64,000 nt of DNA from Bacteroidia bacterium (GTDB lineage Bacteria > Bacteroidota > Bacteroidia > 2-12-FULL-35-15). Each line of letters starts with the position of its first letter. Position 1 is the first letter of the stretch. Of this stretch, positions 3,537 to 64,000 are shown one piece after another. Position numbers and translations under genes: made by a program. The stretch spans positions 91,080 through 155,079 of the forward strand of contig JAVHPE010000206.1 in assembly GCA_036170475.1 (NCBI GenBank), written 5' to 3'. The notes beneath the pieces were generated by a model. That model was not told where the DNA came from. It saw nothing but the letters and a program-made list of their open reading frames with translations, and ran no database searches.

Positions 3537-4973
3537 TTGTTAGAACACAAATACATAAAATGGGTGTATGCATTGAGTATTGCATTTATTGTAATAAATG
3601 CAGTCTGTACTTTTTTTGAATTTTATTATTTCAATTTAATTCCCGCAGTGCTTTTAATTATCGCACTTTCTCTGTTCTCATTAGATAAACTTATTTTACT
3701 GGTTGTTTTTCTTACCCCATTAGCTGTCAATTTTCAGCACATGGAAGGTGGTTTAGGGCTTAGTTTACCTACCGAGCCAATAATTTTTGGCATAATGGTG
3801 ATTTTTATTCTTAAACAACTACATAATAACACGATGGATGTTCAGGTAATGAAGCATCCCATTACCATTGCTATTATCATCAATTTAATTTGGATTTTTG
3901 TTACCAGTGTAACCAGCCAGCTTCCAATGGTATCTTTTAAATTTTTGATTTCGCGTTTATGGTTTGTAATTACTTTCTATTTTATATGCACCCAGTTGTT
4001 TAAGGAGTATTCGAATATTAAAAAATTTTACTGGTTATATATTATCCCATTTACCATTATTATTTTTTATACCTTATATAATCACTATTTAGTTGGATTT
4101 GCGGAAGAACCTGCTAACTATATGATGTCACCCTTTTATAATGACCACACTATCTATGGGGCAATGTTAGCGATGTTTTTACCCGCATTACTATTTTTTA
4201 TGAGGAATAAAACATACACGTCAAGTATAAAATTTAGCGCATTTTTATTTCTTGTTATTTTTCTTATCGCTTTAGTATTTTCTTATACTCGTGCTGCATG
4301 GCTCAGCCTTGCTGCGGCGTTTGTAGTATATTTATTGTTATTGTTAAAAATCAAGTTTCGCACTATTTTATTTGTATTTTTGGCGATTATAGGTTTTCTA
4401 TTAGCTTTTCGAACAGAGCTTGTGATGAAAATGGAAAAAAACAGGCAAGATGCTTCGCAGGATTTTGACAAGCATATTGAGTCCATGTCAAATATATCTA
4501 CTGATGCCTCTAATCTGGAGCGATTAAACCGCTGGAATGCCGCATTCCGTATGTTTGAAGAGCGACCTGTTTTTGGTTGGGGACCAGGAACTTATAGTTT
4601 TGAATATGCTCCCTTTCAACATTCTCAGGAAAGAACAATCATTAGTACCAATATGGGCGACAGAGGCAATGCTCATAGTGAATACATCGGACCCTTATGT
4701 GAGTCAGGTGTATTGGGCGTTCTCACATTTATAGCCATTGTGATTGCTACGCTATTTACCGGGTTCAGATTGTATTATTCGATAAATGATTATGAAACAA
4801 AAAAATTAGTGTTAGTAACCTTACTAGGCTTTATTACCTATATTGTACACGGCGCTTTAAATAACTTTTTAGATTCTGATAAAGCATCTGTCCCTTTTTG
4901 GGGATTTATTGCAATGCTGGTTGCTATAGATGTATATCATAAAAATAGAGGTAAAGAAATAAAGACGGTATAG
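3537..4973 (+). CDS. O-antigen ligase / Wzy-family polytopic membrane protein
   Basis: Has 10-12 TM helices and the Wzy_C-like segment YSYTRAAWLSLAAAFVVYLL. A periplasmic loop carries a GNAHSEY motif typical of the O-antigen ligase family. Confidence 0.7.
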   Translation: MLEHKYIKWVYALSIAFIVINAVCTFFEFYYFNLIPAVLLIIALSLFSLDKLILLVVFLTPLAVNFQHMEGGLGLSLPTEPIIFGIMVIFILKQLHNNTMDVQVMKHPITIAIIINLIWIFVTSVTSQLPMVSFKFLISRLWFVITFYFICTQLFKEYSNIKKFYWLYIIPFTIIIFYTLYNHYLVGFAEEPANYMMSPFYNDHTIYGAMLAMFLPALLFFMRNKTYTSSIKFSAFLFLVIFLIALVFSYTRAAWLSLAAAFVVYLLLLLKIKFRTILFVFLAIIGFLLAFRTELVMKMEKNRQDASQDFDKHIESMSNISTDASNLERLNRWNAAFRMFEERPVFGWGPGTYSFEYAPFQHSQERTIISTNMGDRGNAHSEYIGPLCESGVLGVLTFIAIVIATLFTGFRLYYSINDYETKKLVLVTLLGFITYIVHGALNNFLDSDKASVPFWGFIAMLVAIDVYHKNRGKEIKTV

Positions 4974-5059
4974 GGTAGTGGCTCCATCAAGTAATACTTC
5001 AATCCTGTAGATTAACACCAATAAAACAAAGAATAAATCAATTAGCACATTTTTAAAAA

Positions 5060-6424
5060 TTGAAACCAAGTATCCCTAAAGGCACCCGTGATTTTTCACC
5101 TCAGGAAATGGTGAAACGCAATTATATTTTTGACACCATCAAACAAGTGTTTCAATGCTTTGGCTATTTGCCAATTGAAACACCCGCTATGGAGAACCTT
5201 TCTACCCTCATGGGAAAGTACGGGGAAGAGGGAGATAAATTGATTTTTAAGATTTTGAATTCGGGAGATTTCAGGGCTGGGGTTGATATGAATTTAGATT
5301 CAAAGCAATTGGTAAATAAGATTTCCGAAAAAGCGCTCAAATATGATCTAACCGTTCCCTTCGCTCGATATGTTGTTCAACACCAGAGTGAAATTACTTT
5401 TCCATTTAAGCGTTACCAGATACAACCTGTTTGGCGAGCAGATCGCCCGCAAAAGGGACGTTACCGTGAATTTTATCAATGTGATGCTGATGTGATTGGA
5501 AGTAATTCATTGGTAAATGAAGTGGAGTTGGTACAGCTGATTGATGAGGTATTTACAAAATTAAGTGTTCCTGTTTTAATCAAAATTAATAATCGCAAAA
5601 TTTTGCAAGGCTTAGGGGAAGTCATTGGCGAACAAAATAGAATTATAGATATCACAGTTGCCTTAGACAAATATGATAAGATCGGAGAAGATATATACAC
5701 CGAGTTAGAGCAAAAAGGTTTTCAAAAAGATAAGATATCAAAATTGAAAAGTTTTATTGATGAATTCTCATCCTTAAAGGAAGGAAATGAAAGATTGAAC
5801 TTCTTGAAAAGAATTTTTTCCGATACTTCAATTGGGATGAAGGGCGTTGAAGAAGTTGAGTTCATTTTTAAAACATTGGGTATGTTATATGTTGATCAAA
5901 AGATGCCAGAATTGGAGATTGATTTAGCATTAGCACGAGGACTCAATTACTATACAGGAGCAATTTTTGAGGTAAAAGCGAATACAGGTACATTTACCAG
6001 CAGCATTTGTGGTGGAGGAAGATACGACGACTTAACAGGTATTTTCGGTTTGCCGAATATGTCAGGAGTTGGTATTTCATTCGGAGCAGACAGGATTTAT
6101 GATGTATTGAATGAATTAAATCTATTTCCTGAATCGGTTGCTGCCAGTACAAAATTATTATTTGTATCATTTGGTTTAACCGAACAAAATTATTGTTTGC
6201 CGTTATTGGCACAGGTTAGGAAAGCAGGTATTAATTCAGAGATTTATCCGGATGCAGGAGCAAAAATGAAAAAACAAATGGGTTATGCAGATGATAAAAA
6301 AATTGCATTTGTTGTAATTGTTGGAAGTGATGAAATTCAAAGTGGTCTTCTAACATTGAAGAACATGACATCCGGCGAGCAGGAGAAATTAAGTATAGAA
6401 AATATTATTCAAAAATTGAAATAA
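5060..6424 (+). CDS. hisS: Histidine--tRNA ligase
   Basis: N-terminus [13 protein letters not shown], class II aaRS motifs (GGGRYDDL) and a C-terminal anticodon-binding domain. Starts at a TTG. Confidence 0.92.
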
Positions 6425-6434
6425 AATTTACCAT

Positions 6435-6500
6435 GGAGACACGGAGAACACAAAGAAACACAGAGCCTCGGTGTACCTCCGTTAACTCTGTGTCTCCGTG
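6435..6500. promoter_or_regulatory. Structured intergenic element (two 7-bp helices with alternative pairings) between hisS and the ammonia-lyase gene
   Basis: cacggag (6440-6446) pairs with ctccgtg (6494-6500), and cacagag (6459-6465) pairs with ctctgtg (6486-6492). The apical loop contains ctccgt, which can pair alternatively with acggag. An A8 run follows. Confidence 0.3.
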
Positions 6501-6514
6501 TTAAAAAAAATATC

Positions 6515-7996
6515 ATGCATCACATTTCTACAACAAAATTAGATTTCGAAAAAATCTCAGAAATCATTTCTGGAAATAAAAAACTTGCCTTATCGGATGA
6601 AGTAAAAACAAATATTATACGTTGCCGTGAATATCTGGATAAAAAAATGGCTTCACAAAAAGAGCCTATTTATGGTATTAATACAGGATTTGGTTCTTTA
6701 TGCGATATAATTATTCCTCCTGAAGATTTAGAAAAATTACAACAGAATTTAGTGATGTCACATGCCTGTGGAACAGGTGATGAAGTACCACAAGATATTG
6801 TGAAATTACTGTTGCTGTTAAAAATTCAGGCTTTCTCTTATGGCAAATCAGGAGTTCAAATCCAAACCGTTGAACGTTTAATCTATTTTTTCAATAATGA
6901 TATTTTACCAATAGTTTATCAACAAGGCTCATTGGGCGCTTCCGGGGATTTATCTCCTCTGGCACATATGAGTTTACCATTGCTGGGATTAGGTAAAGTT
7001 TTTTATCGGGGTAAAAAACAAAATAGTGCTGATGTATTAAAACAATTGAATTTGCAACCTATTCAACTGAAATCAAAAGAAGGGCTGGCACTTTTAAATG
7101 GCACCCAATTTATGAGTGCTTATGGTGTATGGTGTTTATTGCGAACCAAAAAATTGAGTCTTGCTGCTGATTTAATCAGTGCCGTTTCATTAGATGCTTT
7201 TGATGGTCGTATGGAGCCTTTTAAATTGCACCTTCACACTATACGTCCGCATAAGGGGCAAATGCAGACTGCCAAAAATATGCTCAAGCTATTAGATGGC
7301 AGTGAATTGATCAAACGTAAAAAAGTTCATGTACAGGATCCTTATTCATTCAGATGTATCCCACAGGTACATGGTGCATCGAAGGATGTAATTGGGTATG
7401 CGGAGAATGTTTTCTTAACCGAAATAAATTCTGTGACAGACAACCCGACAATTTTCCCAGATGAAGATGAAGTAATTTCCGGTGGTAACTTTCACGGGCA
7501 GCCTCTTGCATTAGCATTGGATTTTTTAGCCATCGCATTAGCGGAGTTAGGTAATATCTCCGAAAGACGTACCTATCAATTGATTTCCGGGACACGTGGT
7601 TTGCCCTCCTTTTTGGTAGCAACCCCCGGATTAAATTCCGGATTTATGATTCCTCAATATACCGCTGCAAGTATTGTAAGTCAGAACAAACAATTATGCT
7701 CTCCCGCTTCTATTGATTCTATTGTTAGTTCAAACGGACAGGAAGACCATGTTTCAATGGGTGCCAATGCAGCCACAAAATGTTATAAAGTAGTTGAAAA
7801 TTTGCAACGTATACTTGCCATAGAATTGTTCAATGCCTCACAGGCAATGGAATTCAGAAGACCTTTAAAGTCATCACCAATAATTGAAAATTTAATTTCT
7901 GACTATCGTAAACAGGTTCCGTTTATAGATTCAGATAAAATAATGTACACCGAAATTGAAAAAAGTGTTCAGTTTTTGACAAATAAAAAATGGTAA
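6515..7996 (+). CDS. hutH: Histidine ammonia-lyase family (HAL/PAL/TAL, MIO-dependent) enzyme
   Basis: Has the ASG triad (GSLGASGDLSPLAHM) that forms the MIO cofactor, with HAL-like length and overall similarity. Substrate (His vs Tyr/Phe) cannot be decided from sequence alone. Confidence 0.8.
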   Translation: MHHISTTKLDFEKISEIISGNKKLALSDEVKTNIIRCREYLDKKMASQKEPIYGINTGFGSLCDIIIPPEDLEKLQQNLVMSHACGTGDEVPQDIVKLLLLLKIQAFSYGKSGVQIQTVERLIYFFNNDILPIVYQQGSLGASGDLSPLAHMSLPLLGLGKVFYRGKKQNSADVLKQLNLQPIQLKSKEGLALLNGTQFMSAYGVWCLLRTKKLSLAADLISAVSLDAFDGRMEPFKLHLHTIRPHKGQMQTAKNMLKLLDGSELIKRKKVHVQDPYSFRCIPQVHGASKDVIGYAENVFLTEINSVTDNPTIFPDEDEVISGGNFHGQPLALALDFLAIALAELGNISERRTYQLISGTRGLPSFLVATPGLNSGFMIPQYTAASIVSQNKQLCSPASIDSIVSSNGQEDHVSMGANAATKCYKVVENLQRILAIELFNASQAMEFRRPLKSSPIIENLISDYRKQVPFIDSDKIMYTEIEKSVQFLTNKKW

Positions 7997-54510: not shown

Positions 54511-54583
54511 TGCCCAATCACTACCCAATTAGCCCAATTATTGCCCAATCAATGTGCAATTTGTGCAATTAATGTGCAATTCA
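54511..54583. repeat. Phased short tandem repeats: 4x (T/G)(G/C)CCCAAT then 3x GTGCAAT, about 10-bp period
   Basis: CCCAAT at 54513, 54524, 54533 and 54544. GTGCAAT at 54554, 54563 and 54574. The last copy abuts the stop codon of the AlbA_2 gene. Confidence 0.65.
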
Positions 54584-55897
54584 TTTTAGCTGATAAAATG
54601 CCCCGGCCCCTTTAACATCACTCGGAACAAGAATTTTTTTCTGAACTAAGTCAGCAAGGTCATTACTGGCAGTATTTCGAGAACAATCATTTAATAACTG
54701 ATAGTCTTTATTTGTAATTTTTCCTTTATCTTGAATAAAAACCACCGCTTTCAATTGTCGCTCGTTAAGCCCAATTTTAATTAGTTGTTCTTTGGTTAGG
54801 TTGTCTTTAAAAAGAGTTACCAAAAAACCTCCTTGAAATTCCTTGATTTCCGGTTCGGGCAATTCAGCATCCCTGCAAGCATCGTAAATTTTTAAAGTTC
54901 CACGACCCCATGAATCAATAAACCCTCCCTTAAAACATACATCGGCAAGTAATACATTTCGAGGTTCTGAGGCGTGAAATCCTTTTAGGGCTTCAAAAGT
55001 TAATCCTTGTGGAAGTGTGCCTGTATTCCAAAAATTAATCTTGTTATCATAAACACGTATTTGAATAGGGGCGCCCAAATAGTTGCGGTGTACAAGAGCA
55101 TTTAAAATAATTTCACGCAGAGCAGGTGTTGGATATTCACTTTTTTCAATCCGGTGCATACCTTCAAATTCAACTTTCCTGATAAGGAATTTATGATTCA
55201 ATTGATTTAAAACCGCTTGAAGTAATGAAAACAAGTTTCCTTCCTCTGTTTCCTGAAAAACAAGGTCTGCATCGTCTTTCCCGAAACGACCTATTTTTAC
55301 AAATGTATTTGGATAAAACTTTCCCGGGTCTTTGCCGAACAATATTATGGCAGCACGTTTTAATTGACCATTTTTTGAAAGACGCAATTTTTCCAATAAA
55401 TCTTTTGTGGAAAGCCCTTCATGTTCCGGCAAGCGACCTGATTTTACAGAGGCATTCAGGTATAATTTAATACTTGGCTCGTCAATGTCATTTAATGTTG
55501 CCTCAGGCTCAATCACATCGTCCCATGTTTTGCCCGATTTCTTCAACAGAAAATCATTCAGAGATGCCCCTGTTAATTCATGTTTGGTACTTCCACTCCG
55601 GTAATAATATCTTCCCCTTAATGAAATAGGAACAGTATATGGATGTGTAACTATTTCAATAAAACGTTTTCCTTTTTCTTCGTGTAAATTTACTTCAACA
55701 GAAATACCCATAGCGTTTCTAACCTTATTTGGTATGTCTTCCATCAATTTTTTATAATCATCAACGCCAACAGCTTTTCCGTTATCGTCTTTGCCGATGA
55801 AGATTATACCTCCTTGGGCGTTGGCAAAACCACATACCCATTTTAGATAGTCTTCGTGCCAACTTTGTTTGTATTCTATATTTTGTTGTTCCGGCAT
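54581..55897 (-). CDS. Schlafen-like AlbA_2 (divergent AAA) domain protein with HATPase_c_4 and C-terminal wHTH
   Basis: N-terminal IEYKQSW…FANAQGGIIFIGKDDNGKAVGV (AlbA_2 signature). Middle REIILNALVHRNY…IQIRVYDNKINFWNTG…RN.LLAD…GRG segment (HATPase_c_4). C-terminal LNERQLKAV…GKITNKDYQLL (wHTH). Confidence 0.7.
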   Translation of the reverse strand: MPEQQNIEYKQSWHEDYLKWVCGFANAQGGIIFIGKDDNGKAVGVDDYKKLMEDIPNKVRNAMGISVEVNLHEEKGKRFIEIVTHPYTVPISLRGRYYYRSGSTKHELTGASLNDFLLKKSGKTWDDVIEPEATLNDIDEPSIKLYLNASVKSGRLPEHEGLSTKDLLEKLRLSKNGQLKRAAIILFGKDPGKFYPNTFVKIGRFGKDDADLVFQETEEGNLFSLLQAVLNQLNHKFLIRKVEFEGMHRIEKSEYPTPALREIILNALVHRNYLGAPIQIRVYDNKINFWNTGTLPQGLTFEALKGFHASEPRNVLLADVCFKGGFIDSWGRGTLKIYDACRDAELPEPEIKEFQGGFLVTLFKDNLTKEQLIKIGLNERQLKAVVFIQDKGKITNKDYQLLNDCSRNTASNDLADLVQKKILVPSDVKGAGAFYQLK

Positions 55898-55918: not shown

Positions 55919-57859
55919 TTAAAGGATGCTTTCTTTTGAAAAATCTACTTTTAATTGCTTCGCTTGTTGTCTGAAAAGTTCCATGCCTGGAATGTCATCA
56001 TATCTTTCACTAAGTTTATTCCTTAGTCCAAACAATCTCTTTTCTGCTGTGTCAACAAGTTGGTCGAAAATGCAAACATTTACCTTTCCTCTGTCCCCAA
56101 CTTTTACAATTAATTCAACCTTTTCTGAAAATTCTTTTCCGATTACATAACAATCTATACTTGGGTTTCCAATAAGATTCCCACAATTAATAAAATTTTC
56201 AACATAACTCATTGCTTGATTTCTTTCCTTTCGTGAAAGCTTTGAGCCACCTTTTTTCAATTCAATTAAAAGTATTTTGCTGACATTTGAAAGCGAGGAA
56301 TCGATTTCAAATGTTTCTGTTCCGGTTACTGAGAGTGTTGAGTTTGATAAAACAACAATATCGGGCCTCTTTCTGTGATTATTAAATACATTTTTTTGAA
56401 TTTCTGTTTTGAATACAATCTCAACAGCATTTTGTAATTGTCTATTTGAAGCATATTCTGCCGATTCGTATTCAGGACTAAATAACCACCTTGCACTTGT
56501 TACCAATGGATGCAGTACATGAAGTTCATCTACATCTTTATCACCTGCTAATTTTCTTATCGCCTCAATAACAGAGATTCTATTATCAATTTCATCTAGC
56601 ACAGTTAAAGCATCCCTTACCGACCAATTTTCAAGTAACATGTTTAGACCAGAAATATCATCTTCGGTGAGCTTTGAAAGCTTTACTAATAAATCTTTTC
56701 CACTTCTTGTTTTTTCAAGATTGATGATTGCTTCAACTGCTATCGAAATTGCTTCTTGTTTTGCAGTAGGATGAGCAACGGTGATAGTTTCAATGGCTTC
56801 ATTCAATTCGTATCTTGCAAGAGGCGATAAAACAGCATAGTCTTGAGCAAATTCACTTTTTATTTGTTCTTTGGTTTCTTCAATATTTTCTTTTGCAACC
56901 ACACTAAACATTTCATTTACATATTCTCCGACAGCTCTGTAAACTTCATTCATGAGTTCTCCTTGTTTAAAGCCTGTCCAATCTTCAAAAATGTAATCTG
57001 CCAAGTCATTAGTTTTTACAACAACAGTATATCGCCTTGCATATTTGGTTCTTCCGTCAAGAATAAATTCGTTTCCTAAAATCCAAGAAGGTTCGCCAAC
57101 TAAGCGCCCACCTTGCCAGAAGGCAATACCCTGATATATTGTGGAACGCGCTGTTTTTTGTGAGTCAATGAAATGAACTTGAAGATTGATGTTTTTTACC
57201 GAAATTGTTTTAGTGTTCATTAAACCGGAAAGTTGTTCAAGAGCGACTGTCTTTTTGTTTATTGAAACTATAAACTTTGGGTCGTGAAGAAATCTTGCTG
57301 AAATAATTTCTAAAATTTTTTGTGCCTTTGGTAAATTTTTGGCTACAATAACTTCCAATCTTGTTCCTGATGTTTTTGATTCTGCAAATTCATTTTTTTT
57401 AATTACAAATGGTTGTGTTTCACTTATTGTTGTAATTACAAAAGTTGATTTTACCCCTTCTGCATTTGTGATTACCGTATATTCATTATTGAAACATAAT
57501 AATCCATGTCGTCCAATTCCGTTTCTTCCGTAAGCAAAACGTTTTGCATCAATACCCTTTGGAAATATTACATTTTTGCCTTGGTGTTTCAACCTGTTAT
57601 ATCCAAGTTTCATCCATCTGCTATAAAACTGCTCTTTTGTTAAACCTGTTCCATTATCTTCAATAACTAATTTGCTTCCGTAATCTTCTGGGATGCTAAT
57701 GTTTACAATTGTTGCGCCTGCATCCCAAGCATTAGCGACTAATTCAGTTAAAGCAATCTCAGGATAATTGACGATTGCCCCAAGCGTTCTAATTAGGTAA
57801 TCTTCTTCAAATAAAGAACCTTGTGTAACTGGTGTTTTTTGTTGTGATGGTTTTGCCAT
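55919..57859 (-). CDS. GHKL-family (MORC/HATPase_c_3-like) ATPase fused to a C-terminal PD-(D/E)xK (NucS/Mrr-like) nuclease-type domain
   Basis: Bergerat-fold motifs are present: N-box ELVANAWDAGA, G1 IEDNGTGL and G2 GRNGIGRHG. The C-terminus carries RPDIVVL…(27 aa)…ILLIELKKGG…QAMSY, matching the D…(E/Q)xK restriction-endonuclease signature (compare NucS VVIELKRG). Confidence 0.65.
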   Translation of the reverse strand: MAKPSQQKTPVTQGSLFEEDYLIRTLGAIVNYPEIALTELVANAWDAGATIVNISIPEDYGSKLVIEDNGTGLTKEQFYSRWMKLGYNRLKHQGKNVIFPKGIDAKRFAYGRNGIGRHGLLCFNNEYTVITNAEGVKSTFVITTISETQPFVIKKNEFAESKTSGTRLEVIVAKNLPKAQKILEIISARFLHDPKFIVSINKKTVALEQLSGLMNTKTISVKNINLQVHFIDSQKTARSTIYQGIAFWQGGRLVGEPSWILGNEFILDGRTKYARRYTVVVKTNDLADYIFEDWTGFKQGELMNEVYRAVGEYVNEMFSVVAKENIEETKEQIKSEFAQDYAVLSPLARYELNEAIETITVAHPTAKQEAISIAVEAIINLEKTRSGKDLLVKLSKLTEDDISGLNMLLENWSVRDALTVLDEIDNRISVIEAIRKLAGDKDVDELHVLHPLVTSARWLFSPEYESAEYASNRQLQNAVEIVFKTEIQKNVFNNHRKRPDIVVLSNSTLSVTGTETFEIDSSLSNVSKILLIELKKGGSKLSRKERNQAMSYVENFINCGNLIGNPSIDCYVIGKEFSEKVELIVKVGDRGKVNVCIFDQLVDTAEKRLFGLRNKLSERYDDIPGMELFRQQAKQLKVDFSKESIL

Positions 57860-57919: not shown

Positions 57920-58447
57920 TCAATCCTGCGTTCCATCAATATCAAGCTTTTTCTTTAATTCATCTAAACTAATAGTGTTCTTTTTCTTTTCTTCATCGCT
58001 CATGTTTTTATATTCGTCAACAACATTTTTTATTCTATCAAAATCATTCTGAATTTCTTCTTCTTCAAATCCGGCATAAGTCATTTCGTTTAAACAATGC
58101 GCAATTATTTCGAGTTCAGTAAATTCTTTCAGTGTGAGTTTATCTATTCCCATTCCTAACCATTGGTTCCAAGGAGTATATTCAATAGCAAGGCCATCAT
58201 TAAAATCATCTTTATCGGGTTTAAGATTTATTCCGGCAACATCTACAATAGAGGGTTCAAATGTTTCATCATCATAATGTTGGTTTATTATAATGTTAAT
58301 AGCAACTTCCACAGGCTCCATCAGTTTTAACTTTTCAAAAACTTCTTTGTACTCGCTTATGTTATTTTCCTGTTCGGGATATAGAGCAAGCAATGTAGCT
58401 TCTACACTTAGCCAATTGGTTGTTTTTATTAGCGAATTGAATTTCAT
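57920..58447 (-). CDS. Acidic hypothetical protein (175 aa)
   Basis: ORF only; Glu/Asp-rich C-terminus. Lies 60 bp upstream of the GHKL-nuclease gene on the same strand. Confidence 0.45.
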   Translation of the reverse strand: MKFNSLIKTTNWLSVEATLLALYPEQENNISEYKEVFEKLKLMEPVEVAINIIINQHYDDETFEPSIVDVAGINLKPDKDDFNDGLAIEYTPWNQWLGMGIDKLTLKEFTELEIIAHCLNEMTYAGFEEEEIQNDFDRIKNVVDEYKNMSDEEKKKNTISLDELKKKLDIDGTQD

Positions 58448-58544: not shown

Positions 58545-59006
58545 CTATTCTATCCACTCAAAAAGATATTCAGGCTTGTGTTCAATTTCAAATTTGTTTA
58601 AAAAATCAATGTATTCTTCTTTGAATGTTTGCTTTTTATGATGTTGCTCTTGATTTAAAATATAATTGTAAACTTGTCCCATTTGTGAATGCGAATAGGA
58701 AAACGCTCCATAGCCTTCTTGCCATTGAAATTTTCCTTTAATAAATTTTTTTTCATTAATAAATTTTGAAGAGTTGTTTTTTATATCTCTTACCAAATCA
58801 GAAATTGCCATAGATGGTTTTAAACCAATAAAACAATGAATGTGGTCAGCAGCACCATTTACAATAATTGATTTTTGTTCCTTCCCTCTGATAATTCCGG
58901 AAATATATTTATGCAATTCATTTTTCCATTGTTTTCCAATAAGATTTTCTCTGCCTTTAACAGCAAATACAACTTGAATATAAATTTGTGAAAATGTGCC
59001 TGCCAT
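58545..59006 (-). CDS. REP-associated tyrosine transposase (RAYT; IS200-like HuH), second copy
   Basis: HuH motif ADHIHCFIGL and a Tyr region (…EEYIDFL). About 35-40% identical to RAYT-1, with conserved QEGYGAFS and EQHHKK segments. Confidence 0.85.
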   Translation of the reverse strand: MAGTFSQIYIQVVFAVKGRENLIGKQWKNELHKYISGIIRGKEQKSIIVNGAADHIHCFIGLKPSMAISDLVRDIKNNSSKFINEKKFIKGKFQWQEGYGAFSYSHSQMGQVYNYILNQEQHHKKQTFKEEYIDFLNKFEIEHKPEYLFEWIE

Positions 59007-59172: not shown

Positions 59173-61641
59173 TTATGCCACTTCCTCTTTTACACCCCAA
59201 ACTTGAGCAATTTTGTTTTTTATTTTTGCCTCAAAAAGTTGAATTAGTTTTTTGTTTGATTCTACTATTTGTATTTCTTCATCAATAGCTGTTACAATTT
59301 CCTTTTGTTCTTCGGTTGGAGGAATGGGTATTTGAATTTCATTTAAATGAGCTTGATTCAATTTTGGTTGTGCCGCACCAGTAACGTGTTTACTAATATC
59401 AATTTGGTTAATATAGGTTTCAACGTATTTGTGTAAAATACTACTCTCAAATTTTAAAACGTGAGCATGATTATTAACCCAATATTTTCCAGTTGCGGTA
59501 AATGCTATTGGATAAACTCTTGAAACTAAATTTGCTCCATCTTCTGAAATTAGTAAAAGTGTATCATCAAAAATAAAATCTTCTACGTAGTCCACTATTC
59601 CCGATGCACCGTAATATGGATATTTCCCCTCTGTTCTGTCTCCTTTTGTAACTGGCTTTCTTTTACCGTCTAAATTTTTTGCTAATTGTCCCAGTTCCAC
59701 CATTTCCCAATTAGGATTAAAGCTAATTGTAGGTTTGTAGTTGTTTACTATTTGTTTTGCTCCATCAATTATTTTTTGGTAACCTTCAATTTCGTTTACT
59801 ATTTGTTGTTGTATTTCGAGTGGTGGTAATGGAATTTCTAAACTTTTTATAAATGATAACGAAGCCATTCTAAAACCACCATCACCTAAAGCGTAAAATT
59901 GGTCGTATAAGGTTTGACTTATTAAATAAAGAAATTTCTTGTCAAGTTGATTCTCATCCTTAACCTGTAATCCAGCGATATTTTGATTGGTAGTTGTTTC
60001 AAATTCTAAATAGGCGGTTTTTCCAATTGTTGCGCCAACTAAAGCAATTAGTGTTGTGCCTTTGGGGAACAATTTTACATTTGATTTTTTAAAACCTAAT
60101 TCGGTAATAAATGTGTCAGCATTATAAATCATTTGATTTTTACAAACAGTAGAACCGACCCAAGGTATAGTACCATTTTCCCAATACGAATTTTCAGTTT
60201 TACTAGGCGTTCCACCCGATTGAATTAAACAAACTTCTTCTAGTTTTACAATATTAAAGACTGTTTGGGAGGCTTCTGTGATAAAATACCTCTCTGCACT
60301 TAAAACAGCATCTTTATTTTCTAAAACGGTTTTCTTCTCTACCAATGTAGCTAAACTTGGTAATACACTACTGAAACCTAACAGGTTTTGAAAACCTGTC
60401 AGGTTTAGTGCTTCCTTATACTTTTCGAATGTTTGCAGTGCAATAGGCAAATCATTTTTAGCGTGCTCCCTACGTTGTGCGCCTAAATCAAAACCATCGT
60501 TTTCTATTTTCAAAAATAAAATGTGTTCACTTTTTTTTGATAATTTTTTATCTAAAATTAATATGGATGTTTTTACACCGCTATAGGGGTTGAAACATCC
60601 GGCAGGCAGAGAGACAACCGCTATTAAACTATCATTCACTAAATGCTTGCGTAATTCTTTATATGCGGTTTGGCTTGTTGCAACAATACCGTTTGGTACA
60701 ACAATTCCGGCTCTTCCATTACTGTTTAAATGTTCTGCGATGTAATCGGTAAATAATACTTCGGCTTTATTTGCTAGTACTCCAAATTTTTTGTGTGGTC
60801 GTATTCCCCCCTTTGGTGTCATAAATGGAGGGTTTGCCAATATTACATCAAAGGTTTCCTGCCAACGGTCTTCGCTGCTTAATGTATCGTACTCATAAAT
60901 TTGAGGAGTAGCAAAACCATGTAAATACATATTAGCTAAACTCAAGCGTACCATATCAGGGCTTATGTCATAACCTGCAAAGTTTGTTGCTAATTTTTTT
61001 CGGTCGTCAGGTTTTAGTTTATCGCCTTGTCGTTTATCGGTATTCTGATTTAAAATATGTTTGTATGCGCTCAATAAGAAACCTGCTGTACCGCAGGCAG
61101 GGTCTAAAACGGTTTCATTCTTTTGAGGATTAACACAAGCTGTCACAAAATCAATGATGTGGCGTGGTGTTCTGAATTGTCCGGCATCACCTTGGCTTCC
61201 CATCACACTCAACAAATATTCAAATGCATCACCTAACTTTTCGCTATGGCTATATTCAAATTCGTTAATGTATTTTAAAAATAATTTTAATGTACTTGGG
61301 TCACGGTAGGGCAGGTAAGCATTTTTGAAAATATTTCGGAACAGTTCAGGAATATTGGGATTAGTATTTAATTTTTCTAAAGCATCGCTGTATAATGCCA
61401 GCATATCAGAACCACTTAGCGAAGGGTCAAATAATTTTCTCCATCCATATTTTGCATATTCTCCGGTAAAGAATTTTGCTTTGCCTTTAAATTTCTCTAC
61501 GGCTTCCTTGTCCATATCATCCATGAACTTATAAATAAGCGCCAATGTAATTTGCTCAATCTGACTTTTAGGGTCGGGAACCTTGCCTACCAATACATCA
61601 CGGCAATCATCAATATTTTTCTTTGTTATGTTATCGAGCAT
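59173..61641 (-). CDS. hsdM: Type I restriction-modification N6-adenine DNA methyltransferase fused to a specificity (HsdS, two TRDs) moiety
   Basis: HsdM N-terminal domain and a SAM-binding LDPACGTAGFL segment. Catalytic motif IV is NPPF. The C-terminal about 370 aa contain two target-recognition domains separated by a conserved spacer (LPPLEIQQQIV…; …IPIPPTEEQKEIV), i.e. a complete HsdS in the same ORF. Confidence 0.85.
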   Translation of the reverse strand: MLDNITKKNIDDCRDVLVGKVPDPKSQIEQITLALIYKFMDDMDKEAVEKFKGKAKFFTGEYAKYGWRKLFDPSLSGSDMLALYSDALEKLNTNPNIPELFRNIFKNAYLPYRDPSTLKLFLKYINEFEYSHSEKLGDAFEYLLSVMGSQGDAGQFRTPRHIIDFVTACVNPQKNETVLDPACGTAGFLLSAYKHILNQNTDKRQGDKLKPDDRKKLATNFAGYDISPDMVRLSLANMYLHGFATPQIYEYDTLSSEDRWQETFDVILANPPFMTPKGGIRPHKKFGVLANKAEVLFTDYIAEHLNSNGRAGIVVPNGIVATSQTAYKELRKHLVNDSLIAVVSLPAGCFNPYSGVKTSILILDKKLSKKSEHILFLKIENDGFDLGAQRREHAKNDLPIALQTFEKYKEALNLTGFQNLLGFSSVLPSLATLVEKKTVLENKDAVLSAERYFITEASQTVFNIVKLEEVCLIQSGGTPSKTENSYWENGTIPWVGSTVCKNQMIYNADTFITELGFKKSNVKLFPKGTTLIALVGATIGKTAYLEFETTTNQNIAGLQVKDENQLDKKFLYLISQTLYDQFYALGDGGFRMASLSFIKSLEIPLPPLEIQQQIVNEIEGYQKIIDGAKQIVNNYKPTISFNPNWEMVELGQLAKNLDGKRKPVTKGDRTEGKYPYYGASGIVDYVEDFIFDDTLLLISEDGANLVSRVYPIAFTATGKYWVNNHAHVLKFESSILHKYVETYINQIDISKHVTGAAQPKLNQAHLNEIQIPIPPTEEQKEIVTAIDEEIQIVESNKKLIQLFEAKIKNKIAQVWGVKEEVA

Positions 61642-62459
61642 TATTTCAGTTTTTTAAGTGCTTTGCTATTTAAAAGCGATTTCATTTGTGTAATTGCCAT
61701 CTCATTTAATTGAAACAATCTTTCGGGCTGAGCTAATTTTTGTTTGATTAGCATTGCATTTATGCTTTCCAAATTGGTTAATACAACCAACTGTTCAAGG
61801 TTTGCCTCATCTCTAATATTACCTTTTGCTTTTGGGTTTTCGACTCTCCATTCCTTGGCGGTTTTGCCAAACAGAGCCATATTCAATAAGTCGGCTTCGT
61901 TGGCATACACAAAAGAAATTTGTTGTTTGCTTAGTTTAGCAGGAATAAGATTTTCCTTAATAGCATCAGTATGAATTTGATAATTTACTTTTGATAAAGT
62001 TCTTTGTAAATTCCAATCTAATTTTAAACGGTCGTTTTCATCTGCTTTTAAGCGTTGGAATTCTTTTATAATGTATAATTTGAATTCAATTGAAATCCAA
62101 GATGCGAATTCAAAAGCAATGTCTTTGTGTGCAAAAGTTCCACCATATCTTCCCGACTTTGAAATAAGTCCAATAGCACTGGTGTTTTCTATCCATCGTT
62201 TAGGAGTCATTACAAAACTGTTAAGTCCAGCCTGTTTTCTAAACCCCTCGAATTCGAGGGGTTTAAAATTTGGATTATATAATATCTCCCAAAAACCTAA
62301 AAGTTCAATGGTATTTCTATTTCGTAACCAATTTTGAATAATTGCATCCATATTGCTCGAATCTTTATGTCGTGCAATATCTGTAAGAGAGATAAAATCT
62401 TCGTTACTTTCTTGATAGATAGCAATTTCAATTCCCTTTATATTTATTTTTTTACTCAT
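61641..62459 (-). CDS. KilA-N domain protein embedded in the type I R-M operon
   Basis: N-terminal INIKGIEIAIYQESNEDFISLTDIAR…GRYGGTFAHKDIAFEFASWIS (KilA-N/APSES-like DNA-binding domain) plus a C-terminal helical region. Its stop shares a base with the hsdMS start. Confidence 0.65.
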   Translation of the reverse strand: MSKKINIKGIEIAIYQESNEDFISLTDIARHKDSSNMDAIIQNWLRNRNTIELLGFWEILYNPNFKPLEFEGFRKQAGLNSFVMTPKRWIENTSAIGLISKSGRYGGTFAHKDIAFEFASWISIEFKLYIIKEFQRLKADENDRLKLDWNLQRTLSKVNYQIHTDAIKENLIPAKLSKQQISFVYANEADLLNMALFGKTAKEWRVENPKAKGNIRDEANLEQLVVLTNLESINAMLIKQKLAQPERLFQLNEMAITQMKSLLNSKALKKLK

Positions 62460-62509
62460 ATTTCAATTTTAATTGTGGCGAATTTGCCATTTTTAAAAAT
62501 TATAACCAC

Positions 62510-64000
62510 TTAAGAACTTATAAATTTATTTAACGGCACATATGTTTTAATGTAATAAGGCAATTTACTTTTCATATCATCATCTACACGGTTAAAATCT
62601 TCTACATTAAAAGTTGGGTTGTGATACAATTCTGTAAACTCTTGTTGGTCGATTATATCTCTTACTGTTGGGTCGGTAATGTAAGCGTAAAAGAAATAGC
62701 GCAAAGACTGCAAATCACTGACATTAGAAATATTATTGGTGCTAATAAATTTATCAAATTCATCACTCAATAAATCATCTTTACCTTTTATTTTGTTGCC
62801 GAAATAAATTAGTTCTAATAATTCTCTCCAACCAATTTTACGGTCTATTTTTAGTGATTTACGTAATTTTTCTAAATCAAAATATTCTTCAGGTTTGTTA
62901 TCGTATTTTTCTTTTGCCCTCGCAGATGCTATTTCAACATCGCCAGCCTCCATCAATAATTTTATTTCATCATCTGTTTTTACTTTTTCTTCAAACTGCT
63001 GAAAAAACATCCGGTCAACTTTCATACCCTGAAAATCAACTTGTTTTTCTTGAAAGGAAGTTATTTTATCGTTTTCTTTATACTCAAAACCTTCCCGCTT
63101 TGCTTTTAAAGTGTCCTCAAATACCAGCACTTCATCACCTTTGTCAATATTGATAGGCAATTTCAATACTTGGTCGTACTGATATTTTTCTTCAAAATAT
63201 TCGCAGGTAGCGAAGAAATCAAAAAGTTTAAATGCTTTTTTGTCAATAGAAATTGTTTCTACTTCGCCCAAATCATTTTTGAATTTGTGTTCAAATTTAT
63301 GAATACGGGTTCCTCTTCCTTTTATCTGAATAAATTCTGTTGGTGAAAAAATCGGTCGCATTAATCCAAGGTTCAAAATATTGGGGCAATCCCAACCTGT
63401 GGTCATCATTCCAACGGTTACACAAATTCTCGCTATGCTTGTTTTATATGATTCTAAAATTTCATTGTCTTTTGCAAAATTGCTAAAACCCAATAATTTG
63501 TCGTTGCTATAATCAATAGACATTTGCTGACTGTTGGCTACATTAGAGGTTACCTGAACAGCAAAATCGCTTTGATATTTATTCGGGAATAATTGATGTG
63601 CATATTCATTAAGCAATTGTGCCAATTTTGCAGCATGATTTTGTGAAACCGCAAAAACGAGGCTCTTTCCAAACTCTCCGCTAATTGGGTCTTTTAAGCC
63701 ATTTTCAATAAATGTTTTACAGAAAACACGGTTTGTTTCTTCCGAGAAAAATTTTCGTTCAAAATGATTTTGCTTGTAATTAACTTCTTCTAAAATGTCC
63801 TCTTGCTCAGTACTGGCAATGGTTACCATAATTCCGTAACCTTGCTCGGATAAAAGTTTTGTAGTTACATCAGTTCTTGCATCCACAACAATTGGTTGAC
63901 GTAAAAATCCGTCTTTAGCACCATCTGTAAGTGTATAACGGTATGTAGGTTGACCACTTTCACAACCAAAAGTGATGTAAGTATCTAACAACATTCTGCG
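62510..64000 (-). CDS. hsdR: Type I restriction enzyme R subunit (HsdR), C-terminal portion; gene continues beyond the window end
   Basis: Helicase C-terminal motifs (TGWDCPNILNL, motif VI QIKGRGTR) followed by the long helical C-terminal domain typical of HsdR. The ORF is open to the window edge. Confidence 0.85.
   Translation of the reverse strand, partial: RRMLLDTYITFGCESGQPTYRYTLTDGAKDGFLRQPIVVDARTDVTTKLLSEQGYGIMVTIASTEQEDILEEVNYKQNHFERKFFSEETNRVFCKTFIENGLKDPISGEFGKSLVFAVSQNHAAKLAQLLNEYAHQLFPNKYQSDFAVQVTSNVANSQQMSIDYSNDKLLGFSNFAKDNEILESYKTSIARICVTVGMMTTGWDCPNILNLGLMRPIFSPTEFIQIKGRGTRIHKFEHKFKNDLGEVETISIDKKAFKLFDFFATCEYFEEKYQYDQVLKLPINIDKGDEVLVFEDTLKAKREGFEYKENDKITSFQEKQVDFQGMKVDRMFFQQFEEKVKTDDEIKLLMEAGDVEIASARAKEKYDNKPEEYFDLEKLRKSLKIDRKIGWRELLELIYFGNKIKGKDDLLSDEFDKFISTNNISNVSDLQSLRYFFYAYITDPTVRDIIDQQEFTELYHNPTFNVEDFNRVDDDMKSKLPYYIKTYVPLNKFISS

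Follow-up and report, generated by a model that had tools for sequence, protein, structure and literature searches.

In this study, which was based on a 64,000-nucleotide stretch of DNA from a Bacteroidia bacterium (the window), we propose that a stand-alone gene on its minus strand codes for a single-polypeptide defence nuclease of the paraMORC3 or GHKL-Shedu (type I-D) kind, and we give this reading a probability of about 0.75. The protein joins an N-terminal GHKL ATPase to a predicted C-terminal PD-(D/E)xK nuclease and represents an under-annotated clade within this known kind. Both the domain fusion and the phage-defence role are already in the literature, and the gene is no new system. 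The initial interpretation of the locus, which was made from the sequence alone, was partly supported. Novelty of the architecture is not upheld, as paraMORC3 was defined in 2008 and the defence by VcSduA was shown in 2025.

The open reading frame is complete and starts with an ATG, while the plus-strand frame of the same interval has no open frame and contains stops throughout. The single 646-aa frame that had been proposed here was thus confirmed, with its strand being the minus strand (Table 1). A protein in public data, P0001, is 100% identical to its product. All of the peptides that had been quoted in the sequence-only reading were located in the translation, namely ELVANAWDAGA (39-49), IEDNGTGL (66-73), GRNGIGRHG (111-119), RPDIVVL (498-504), ILLIELKKGG (529-538) and Q..SY (548-552), and the motif matches exceed chance.

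Table 1. Features of the gene under study and of its neighbourhood (positions in the window; residues are those of the 646-aa protein)
Feature	Position	Strand	Basis or remark
GHKL ATPase-PD-(D/E)xK nuclease (paraMORC3-type)	55919..57859	minus	complete ORF, 646 aa + stop
GHKL (Bergerat-fold) ATPase domain, residues ~20-195	57275..57802	minus	Pfam, profile matches, model pLDDT mostly >85
GHKL motif I ELVANAWD: E39 presumed catalytic base, N43 Mg ligand, D46	57722..57745	minus	invariant in 72 sequences
GHKL motif II DNGTG (D68, G70, G72)	57644..57658	minus	invariant
GHKL motif III / ATP-lid glycines GRNGIGR (G111-R117)	57509..57529	minus	conservation
GHKL motif IV G165-T166	57362..57367	minus	>=90% conserved
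Beta-rich middle (transducer-like) domain, residues ~196-300	56960..57274	minus	model secondary structure, Foldseek, conservation
All-helical linker/arm, residues ~301-438	56546..56959	minus	model secondary structure, pLDDT 58-88
Predicted C-terminal PD-(D/E)xK (restriction-endonuclease-fold) domain, residues ~439-620	56000..56545	minus	
E445, first acid of E-D-ExK, N-terminus of helix alpha1	56525..56527	minus	conservation, model
R498-P499-D500 'PD' motif, start of beta2 strand	56360..56368	minus	R498, D500 invariant; P499 >=90%
E533-L534-K535 '(D/E)xK' motif, end of beta3 strand	56255..56263	minus	E533, K535 invariant
Q548-xxx-Y552 in helix alpha2 (NucS/Mrr-type accessory motif)	56204..56218	minus	conservation
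HsdR fragment	62510-63994	minus	reaches window end
KilA-N / PDC-S22 gene	61641-62459	minus	
Fused HsdM-HsdS	59173-61641	minus	
IS200 transposase	58545-59006	minus	
DUF6557	57920-58447	minus	
Schlafen AlbA_2 + HATPase_c_4 protein	54581-55897	minus	21 nt after the gene under study

The N-terminal Bergerat ATP-binding fold was borne out by Pfam, in which HATPase_c_3 matched residues 34-150 (E 7.2e-17, 62 bits vs. a cutoff of 25). In an alignment of 72 sequences with identities down to 27%, the GHKL residues E39, N43, D46, D68, G70, G72, G114, G116 and R117 were invariant, and G111 and N113 were conserved in at least 90%. The best 50 Foldseek matches of the full-length AlphaFold2 model (mean pLDDT 83) in the PDB all belonged to the Hsp90 family (HtpG, TRAP1, Hsp90, GRP94), which therefore comprises the closest structures; the alignments to the Hsp90 N and M domains extended over 380-440 columns, i.e., the ATPase and the region that follows it, at a TM score of only ~0.25. 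The family profile matched the Hsp90/GRP94 N-domains (E 5e-10, ~200 residues), MutL (E 2.5e-9, ~50 residues) and, after these, MORC4 weakly (E 2.4e-6). Because Hsp90/GRP94 and MutL rank ahead of MORC4, the initial label ‘MORC-like’ is only loosely right: the GHKL part of the assignment stands, but its MORC part is imprecise, and the ATPase module looks closer to Hsp90 or MutL than to MORC. The protein shares with MutL, MORC and Hsp90 a Bergerat fold that has a catalytic Glu, an Mg-binding Asn, DxGxG and a glycine-rich lid, which is followed by a middle domain. However, it has neither the MORC-specific motif nor the CW or coiled-coil regions of MORC, and it also differs from MutL, whose C-terminal endonuclease/dimerisation domain is missing and whose nuclease has another fold; the MutL models matched residues 27-78 only, with 17-31 bits against cutoffs of 180-840. 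By analogy, this protein may resemble MutL in coupling a dimeric clamp, driven by ATP, to a nuclease. The middle domain, which is beta-rich in the model and in which W259, D268, R270, D293 and W294 are conserved, may have the S5/transducer fold. The model places the long helices of the arm at 301-336, 346-362, 368-385 and 414-438.

The C-terminal region had been interpreted as a restriction-endonuclease D...ExK active site. This is supported by the conservation in the homologues, as D500, E533 and K535 were invariant in the 72 sequences; neither a fold of another type nor a loss of these residues, both of which were examined, was found. E445 was conserved in at least 90% of alignment A1 and was invariant in A2. 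Moreover, Y552 was invariant and Q548 was present in 71 of the 72 sequences, and in the alignments the QxxxY motif fell opposite Q..KY in the ParaMORC3/BbrUII clade. The conservation picture was unchanged in an alignment of the C-terminus only. The alignments thus show both predicted catalytic centres to be intact and under strong purifying selection. In the model, the elements are ordered as in the canonical alpha-beta-beta-beta-alpha-beta core: a long strand starts at D500, its antiparallel partner strand ends at E533-x-K535, and the helix that follows carries Q548 and Y552. Because of this strand topology, the PD and ExK motifs should be neighbours in a hairpin.

At the level of the single sequence, the evidence for the C-terminal domain was weak and consisted of a sub-threshold match to HSDR_N_2, a PD-(D/E)xK family (E 0.004 to 0.0013). 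Profile scans of the protein gave no match to DUF4263, NucS or Mrr. Among PDB sequences, the protein had no match outside the GHKL region, and the HMM of the C-terminal domain found no solved nuclease there, a solved Shedu included, but only chance matches to LSm3. A Foldseek search with the nuclease domain revealed no significant structural neighbour. The NucS/EndoMS and FokI cleavage domains were structural neighbours at 12-13% identity, and Cap4, VC1899, Hna, MspJI, Upx, Can1/Can2, McrC, NgoMIV, NucC, HamA and DdmD were found further down the list of structural matches. NucS/EndoMS and FokI differ from the window protein in that there is no kinship at the sequence level, in their N-terminal partner and in their roles in mismatch repair and type IIS restriction, respectively.

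A word-indexed search revealed more than 3000 relatives of the protein. The best 120 of these were all full length, at least 70% identical and from different Bacteroidota orders, and were labelled only ‘ATP-binding protein’ or ‘hypothetical protein’. WP_185218056.1 and WP_124636667.1 are examples of clade members, and a cluster look-up of ten divergent representatives yielded no informative names. When residues 423-646 alone were used in an exhaustive HMMER search (E<=1e-3), 403 cluster representatives were obtained, in which the domain was nearly always at ~420-630 of proteins of 620-690 aa; the shorter matches look like fragments. The fusion of ATPase and nuclease in one protein, which had been predicted initially, is therefore an established architecture rather than an accident of this locus. 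When a single genome of each species was scanned, at least 545 relatives were detected in Bacteroidota, Proteobacteria, Firmicutes, Planctomycetota, Verrucomicrobiota and Acidobacteriota as well as in one archaeal MAG. The clade is centred on Bacteroidota, whose members share 70-85% identity across orders, but is present in many phyla.

These features align well with paraMORC3 as described by Iyer, Abhiman and Aravind (2008, Biol Direct 3:8; PMC2292703), who defined it by a GHKL domain, an S5 middle domain and a C-terminal globular domain with E-D-ExK, which they predicted to be a restriction-endonuclease-fold endonuclease. The authors found paraMORC3 to be prevalent in Proteobacteria and Bacteroidetes and sporadic elsewhere; its nuclease-bearing subset occurred as stand-alone genes whose neighbourhoods were not conserved, and the paraMORCs were without the MORC motif (PMC2292703). 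The window protein likewise has a GHKL domain with the ATP motifs I-IV invariant or nearly so and a predicted C-terminal restriction-endonuclease-fold domain with E-D-ExK, and its clade is stand-alone, found in Bacteroidota and Proteobacteria and sporadically spread by lateral transfer. By this definition, the clade presumably belongs to the 2008 family. A related observation was made by Orlowski and Bujnicki (2008; PMC2441816), who described REBASE subfamilies that begin with a GHKL domain, among them R.VeiORF1182P with a C-terminal PD-(D/E)xK domain, and who also treated R.HgiDII.

A tblastn search of phage genomes revealed a 652-aa CDS in the P2-like phage PhiR44_1 that adjoins a Dcm methylase and is annotated ‘ParaMORC3’, a name given by the depositor and not curated. 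Its relatives occur in E. coli, Serratia, Vibrio (including V. cholerae), Proteus, Aeromonas and Pasteurellaceae, and several of those that are named in their source are labelled ‘BbrUII/HgiDII family restriction enzyme’. Between the two clades, the identity is only ~20-29% and the similarity that is detectable pairwise is confined to the GHKL domain (29% identity between the window protein and the PhiR44_1 protein in BLAST). The alignment of the family profile with the PhiR44_1 protein in hhalign was significant over 532 columns (Prob 99.3, E 1.3e-20) and placed R-I-D, E-M-K and Q-xxx-Y of the phage protein opposite RPD, ELK and QxxxY. With the C-terminus only, the match to this single sequence was not significant (Prob 1.9, E 0.026). 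When the profiles of the two clades were compared, the result was Prob 99.9 and E 5e-31 at full length and Prob 91.8 and E 7.5e-7 for the C-terminal domains alone. On these profile comparisons, the window clade is apparently the sister clade of the annotated ParaMORC3/BbrUII clade.

The curated models also separate the two. The best NCBIfam match of the window protein was NF050001, the BbrUII/HgiDII family restriction enzyme, at E 8e-27, with a score of 94 bits (cutoff 550) that came from residues 37-209 only; together with its close relatives, it scored 77-101 bits, which were confined to the GHKL part, whereas three phage-clade members that were scanned reached 733-749 bits. The C-termini of the phage clade lay near the limit of Pfam SduA_C (cutoff 27 bits), two members reaching 28.1 and 28.6 bits and two more 25.3 and 16.8 bits, while this model (PF14082) matched neither the window protein nor any of the 72 family members and, with the isolated C-terminal domain, gave no match even at E<=10. 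Length and domain order are the same as in BbrUII/HgiDII, and ExK and QxxxY are in register; the differences are a score below the equivalog cutoff and the lack of a cognate methylase. Because of the GHKL-only scores on NF050001 and the lack of an SduA_C match, the protein is a homologue that shares this architecture but belongs to a clade of its own and, as judged from the models, is outside both the curated BbrUII/HgiDII equivalog and Pfam SduA_C.

A defence role for this architecture was demonstrated for VcSduA of the V. cholerae WASA lineage, in which a GHKL ATPase precedes a C-terminal PD-(D/E)xK domain (DUF4263) and which protects E. coli from T1-like phages at every MOI that was tried (Nat Microbiol 2025, PMC12137116). 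The defence was direct rather than abortive and was abolished by E27A and by K557A, and the authors stated that proteins of the VcSduA type ‘were previously annotated as paraMORC3’ (PMC12137116). Gu et al. (2023 preprint, published 2025) classified the Shedu homologues with HATPase_c_3 and an ‘N24’ middle domain as type 1D. Similarly to VcSduA and Shedu type I-D, the window protein would be a single protein of ~650 aa with GHKL motifs I-IV, a clamp-like middle and a C-terminal PD-(D/E)xK domain, and its gene lies within a defence island. Both the Glu of motif I (E27, corresponding to E39) and the ExK Lys (K557, corresponding to K535) are conserved. However, the spacing from Glu to Lys in VcSduA is 530, just beyond that of both of the retrieved clades (479-511 and 515-524), the E27/K557 fingerprint was found in none of the 400 retrieved proteins, and the PADLOC Shedu models did not match the window protein. 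A V. cholerae protein, P0327, was considered as VcSduA but rejected, as it has E45/K563; it is a relative. The homology to VcSduA is indirect, via the authors’ equation with paraMORC3 and the depositor-annotated phage ParaMORC3.

Analysis of the genomic neighbourhood showed no terminator-like site between the gene and the Schlafen-like gene that follows it. The island of a homologue with 98% identity is the same except that the IS200 is missing and an additional gene precedes the Schlafen-like gene, and a homologue with 83% identity has quite different neighbours. DUF6557 and the Schlafen-like gene were considered as obligate partners and rejected, since they accompany only relatives that are 98-100% identical and are replaced in the 83% homologue. 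Homologues elsewhere follow a type III res/mod pair, adjoin an OLD/UvrD (Gabija-like) pair within a conjugative element, stand next to a relaxase or are carried by plasmids of Agrobacterium and Rhizobium. When all of the ORFs within 3.5 kb were clustered, no ORF family occurred in more than six of 80 loci, and no methylase was recurrent in these loci of the window clade. Among the 135 nearest neighbours, Pfam identified an Eco57I-type methylase in six cases, ResIII in five, N6_Mtase in four and N6_N4_Mtase in two; the methylases of these three families all belonged to other R-M systems that were themselves complete, and the 25 most frequent Pfam families included no m5C methylase. Based on this survey and on the varied loci, the gene is autonomous, mobile, associated with defence islands and without a cognate methylase. 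The HsdMS near the gene is part of a type I system with its own HsdR. The GC content was uniformly ~30-37% across the window, and the island borders are not marked by composition; no tRNA was found in the window. A scan for sigma-70-type promoters was set aside as uninformative, as the genome is probably from Bacteroidota.

BbrUII and HgiDII, which are SalI isoschizomers, are sequence-specific type II enzymes that are paired with m5C methylases. It is improbable that the window protein is a classical enzyme of this type, i.e., one that cuts a specific unmethylated site and is held in check by a cognate methyltransferase, even though NF050001 was its best NCBIfam match, the PADLOC REase_II models matched its N-terminus, the sister clade carries the BbrUII/HgiDII name with the PhiR44_1 member adjoining a Dcm methylase, and the homologue P0040 overlaps the end of a type III mod gene. 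The NF050001 score was far below the cutoff and limited to the GHKL part, none of the neighbouring methylases is its own, and the HsdMS of the window is served by another nuclease. As no cognate methyltransferase was found, classical restriction with protection by methylation is not indicated. A one-protein analogue of MutL plus NucS/MutH that acts at mismatches in housekeeping or accessory DNA repair is more improbable still: the distribution is patchy and resembles horizontal transfer, with plasmids and conjugative elements among the settings and defence genes and transposases as neighbours, no MutS-like partner was found, and the window protein was found neither to belong to the NucS/EndoMS family nor to have the NucS N-terminal DNA-binding domain. 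The NucS PCNA/clamp-binding motif is presumably also absent from it. Because of the absent methylase and the mobile, patchy distribution, the restriction-modification and repair readings are those most strongly opposed.

Inactive restriction-endonuclease-fold domains are common in defence proteins. Accordingly, the C-terminal module might be catalytically dead and serve in DNA binding or oligomerisation, which would make the protein an ATP-dependent DNA clamp or regulator, and neither Foldseek nor the sequence models place the domain; we consider this scarcely credible, as E, D, ExK and QxxxY are invariant or at least 90% conserved at such low identities and the equivalent Lys is essential in VcSduA (PMC12137116). 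A modification-dependent (type IV-like) nuclease or one that senses DNA ends or structures, with modified phage bases or free DNA ends as the trigger in place of ATP-gated clamping alone, would also be a defence protein. We regard it as unlikely, since no modified-base reader (SRA, EVE/PUA, DUF262) was recognised in the protein and T1-like phages, on which the related protein acted, are not known for hypermodified DNA. That activity is the one reported for VcSduA (PMC12137116).

As a stand-alone defence nuclease of the paraMORC3 or GHKL-Shedu kind, the protein would act as a homodimer by analogy with VcSduA, for which the authors favoured a dimer and found a tetramer model to be poorly supported (PMC12137116), and with other GHKL proteins. 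The GHKL domains would dimerise upon ATP binding as in Hsp90, MutL and GyrB, and the middle and helical regions may form a clamp that is closed or reset by ATP binding and hydrolysis. The nucleotide state could then license the paired PD-(D/E)xK domains to cut DNA, and incoming DNA of a phage or plasmid would be broken down directly while the host survives. In the literature that was consulted, we found no biochemical mechanism for a GHKL ATPase that licenses a PD-(D/E)xK nuclease.

Members of the clade are labelled ‘ATP-binding protein’ and fall below every curated defence or restriction model that was tested, and surveys of defence islands therefore under-count them; a dedicated HMM that is built from alignment A1 or A2 would mend this. 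In structure, the nuclease appears to be closer to FokI and NucS than to the Shedu core, and it may therefore work differently from canonical Shedu. More specifically, a clade that the Shedu, BbrUII/HgiDII and PADLOC models do not detect could comprise ATP-gated dimeric clamp-nucleases with a trigger of their own, unlike the tetrameric or octameric, end-sensing Shedu, which we put forward as a tentative and rather doubtful suggestion. The scientific gain is modest, but a highly conserved member from Bacteroidota could suit structural and biochemical work on how ATP controls a restriction-endonuclease-fold nuclease in the paraMORC3/GHKL-Shedu group.

Around the target, a 646-aa GHKL ATPase-PD-(D/E)xK nuclease, the window carries several genes of a defence island, and these are listed in the table together with the strongly conserved stretch of the target's own middle domain. 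Within this domain, W259 was found to be invariant, while D268, R270, D293, W294 and F297 are at least 90% conserved, all within the consensus LDGRTxxAKRYT...DW.GF. In MutL, GyrB and Hsp90, a Lys/Arg of the transducer domain touches the ATP gamma-phosphate and, by analogy with this residue, R270 is a candidate for the corresponding contact.

Features of the target and its neighbourhood in the window
Feature	Window position (nt)	Strand	Position relative to other features
Schlafen AlbA_2 + HATPase_c_4 protein, 438 aa	54581-55897	-	directly downstream of target
Strongly conserved middle-domain stretch, target residues 259-297	~56969-57085	-	
DUF6557 protein, 175 aa, E 2e-46	57920-58447	-	60 nt upstream of target
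IS200-type Y1 transposase, 153 aa	58545-59006	-	between hsdMS and DUF6557 gene
Type I R-M system, unusual gene layout	59173-63994	-	

The Schlafen-like gene is separated from the target by a 21-nt gap on the shared strand, and no terminator-like site was found between the two. Its product matched AlbA_2 (E 1e-14) and HATPase_c_4 (E 5e-20) as well as, weakly, pAgo-associated proteins among the PADLOC defence-gene models. The gene is also present at the locus of the 98% homologue, where one additional ORF precedes it. Prokaryotic Schlafen-domain proteins (PF04326) were reported as phage-defence effectors in 2026 (PMC13056530). Within the island, this gene possibly acts in defence independently.

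On the other side of the target, the DUF6557 gene is likewise found upstream of the 98% homologue, an ORF of ~180 aa occupies this position on the contig with the 100%-identical homologue, and the more distant homologues are without a DUF6557 gene. The IS200-type transposase is missing at the equivalent place of the 98%-identical locus, which marks it as a recent insertion into the window's defence island. In the type I R-M system, HsdM and HsdS are fused into a single 822-aa ORF with N6_Mtase and two Methylase_S repeats. Between hsdMS and hsdR sits a KilA-N domain gene with a very strong match (449 bits) to the PADLOC candidate PDC-S22; it has a one-base overlap with hsdMS. The hsdR ORF is truncated where the window stops.

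Among the retrieved homologues, P0119 and P0120 (645 and 654 aa) are distinct full-length family members, each ~72% identical to the target. Because their records give an identical length for the longest contig (285,020 bp; compare Paludibacter sp. contig NZ_WASO01000002.1, 285 kb), they suggest two paralogous copies within one Paludibacter genome. A full NF050001-type (BbrUII/HgiDII family) GHKL-nuclease, annotated as ParaMORC3, is carried by the P2-like E. coli phage PhiR44_1 (PV340563.1, region 3935-6983). A Dcm methylase gene adjoins it in convergent orientation. In contrast to the window clade, this phage-borne copy may have a methylase as its partner. The region lies between gpQ, which encodes the portal, and the replication gene gpA, and looks like a P2 defence hotspot.
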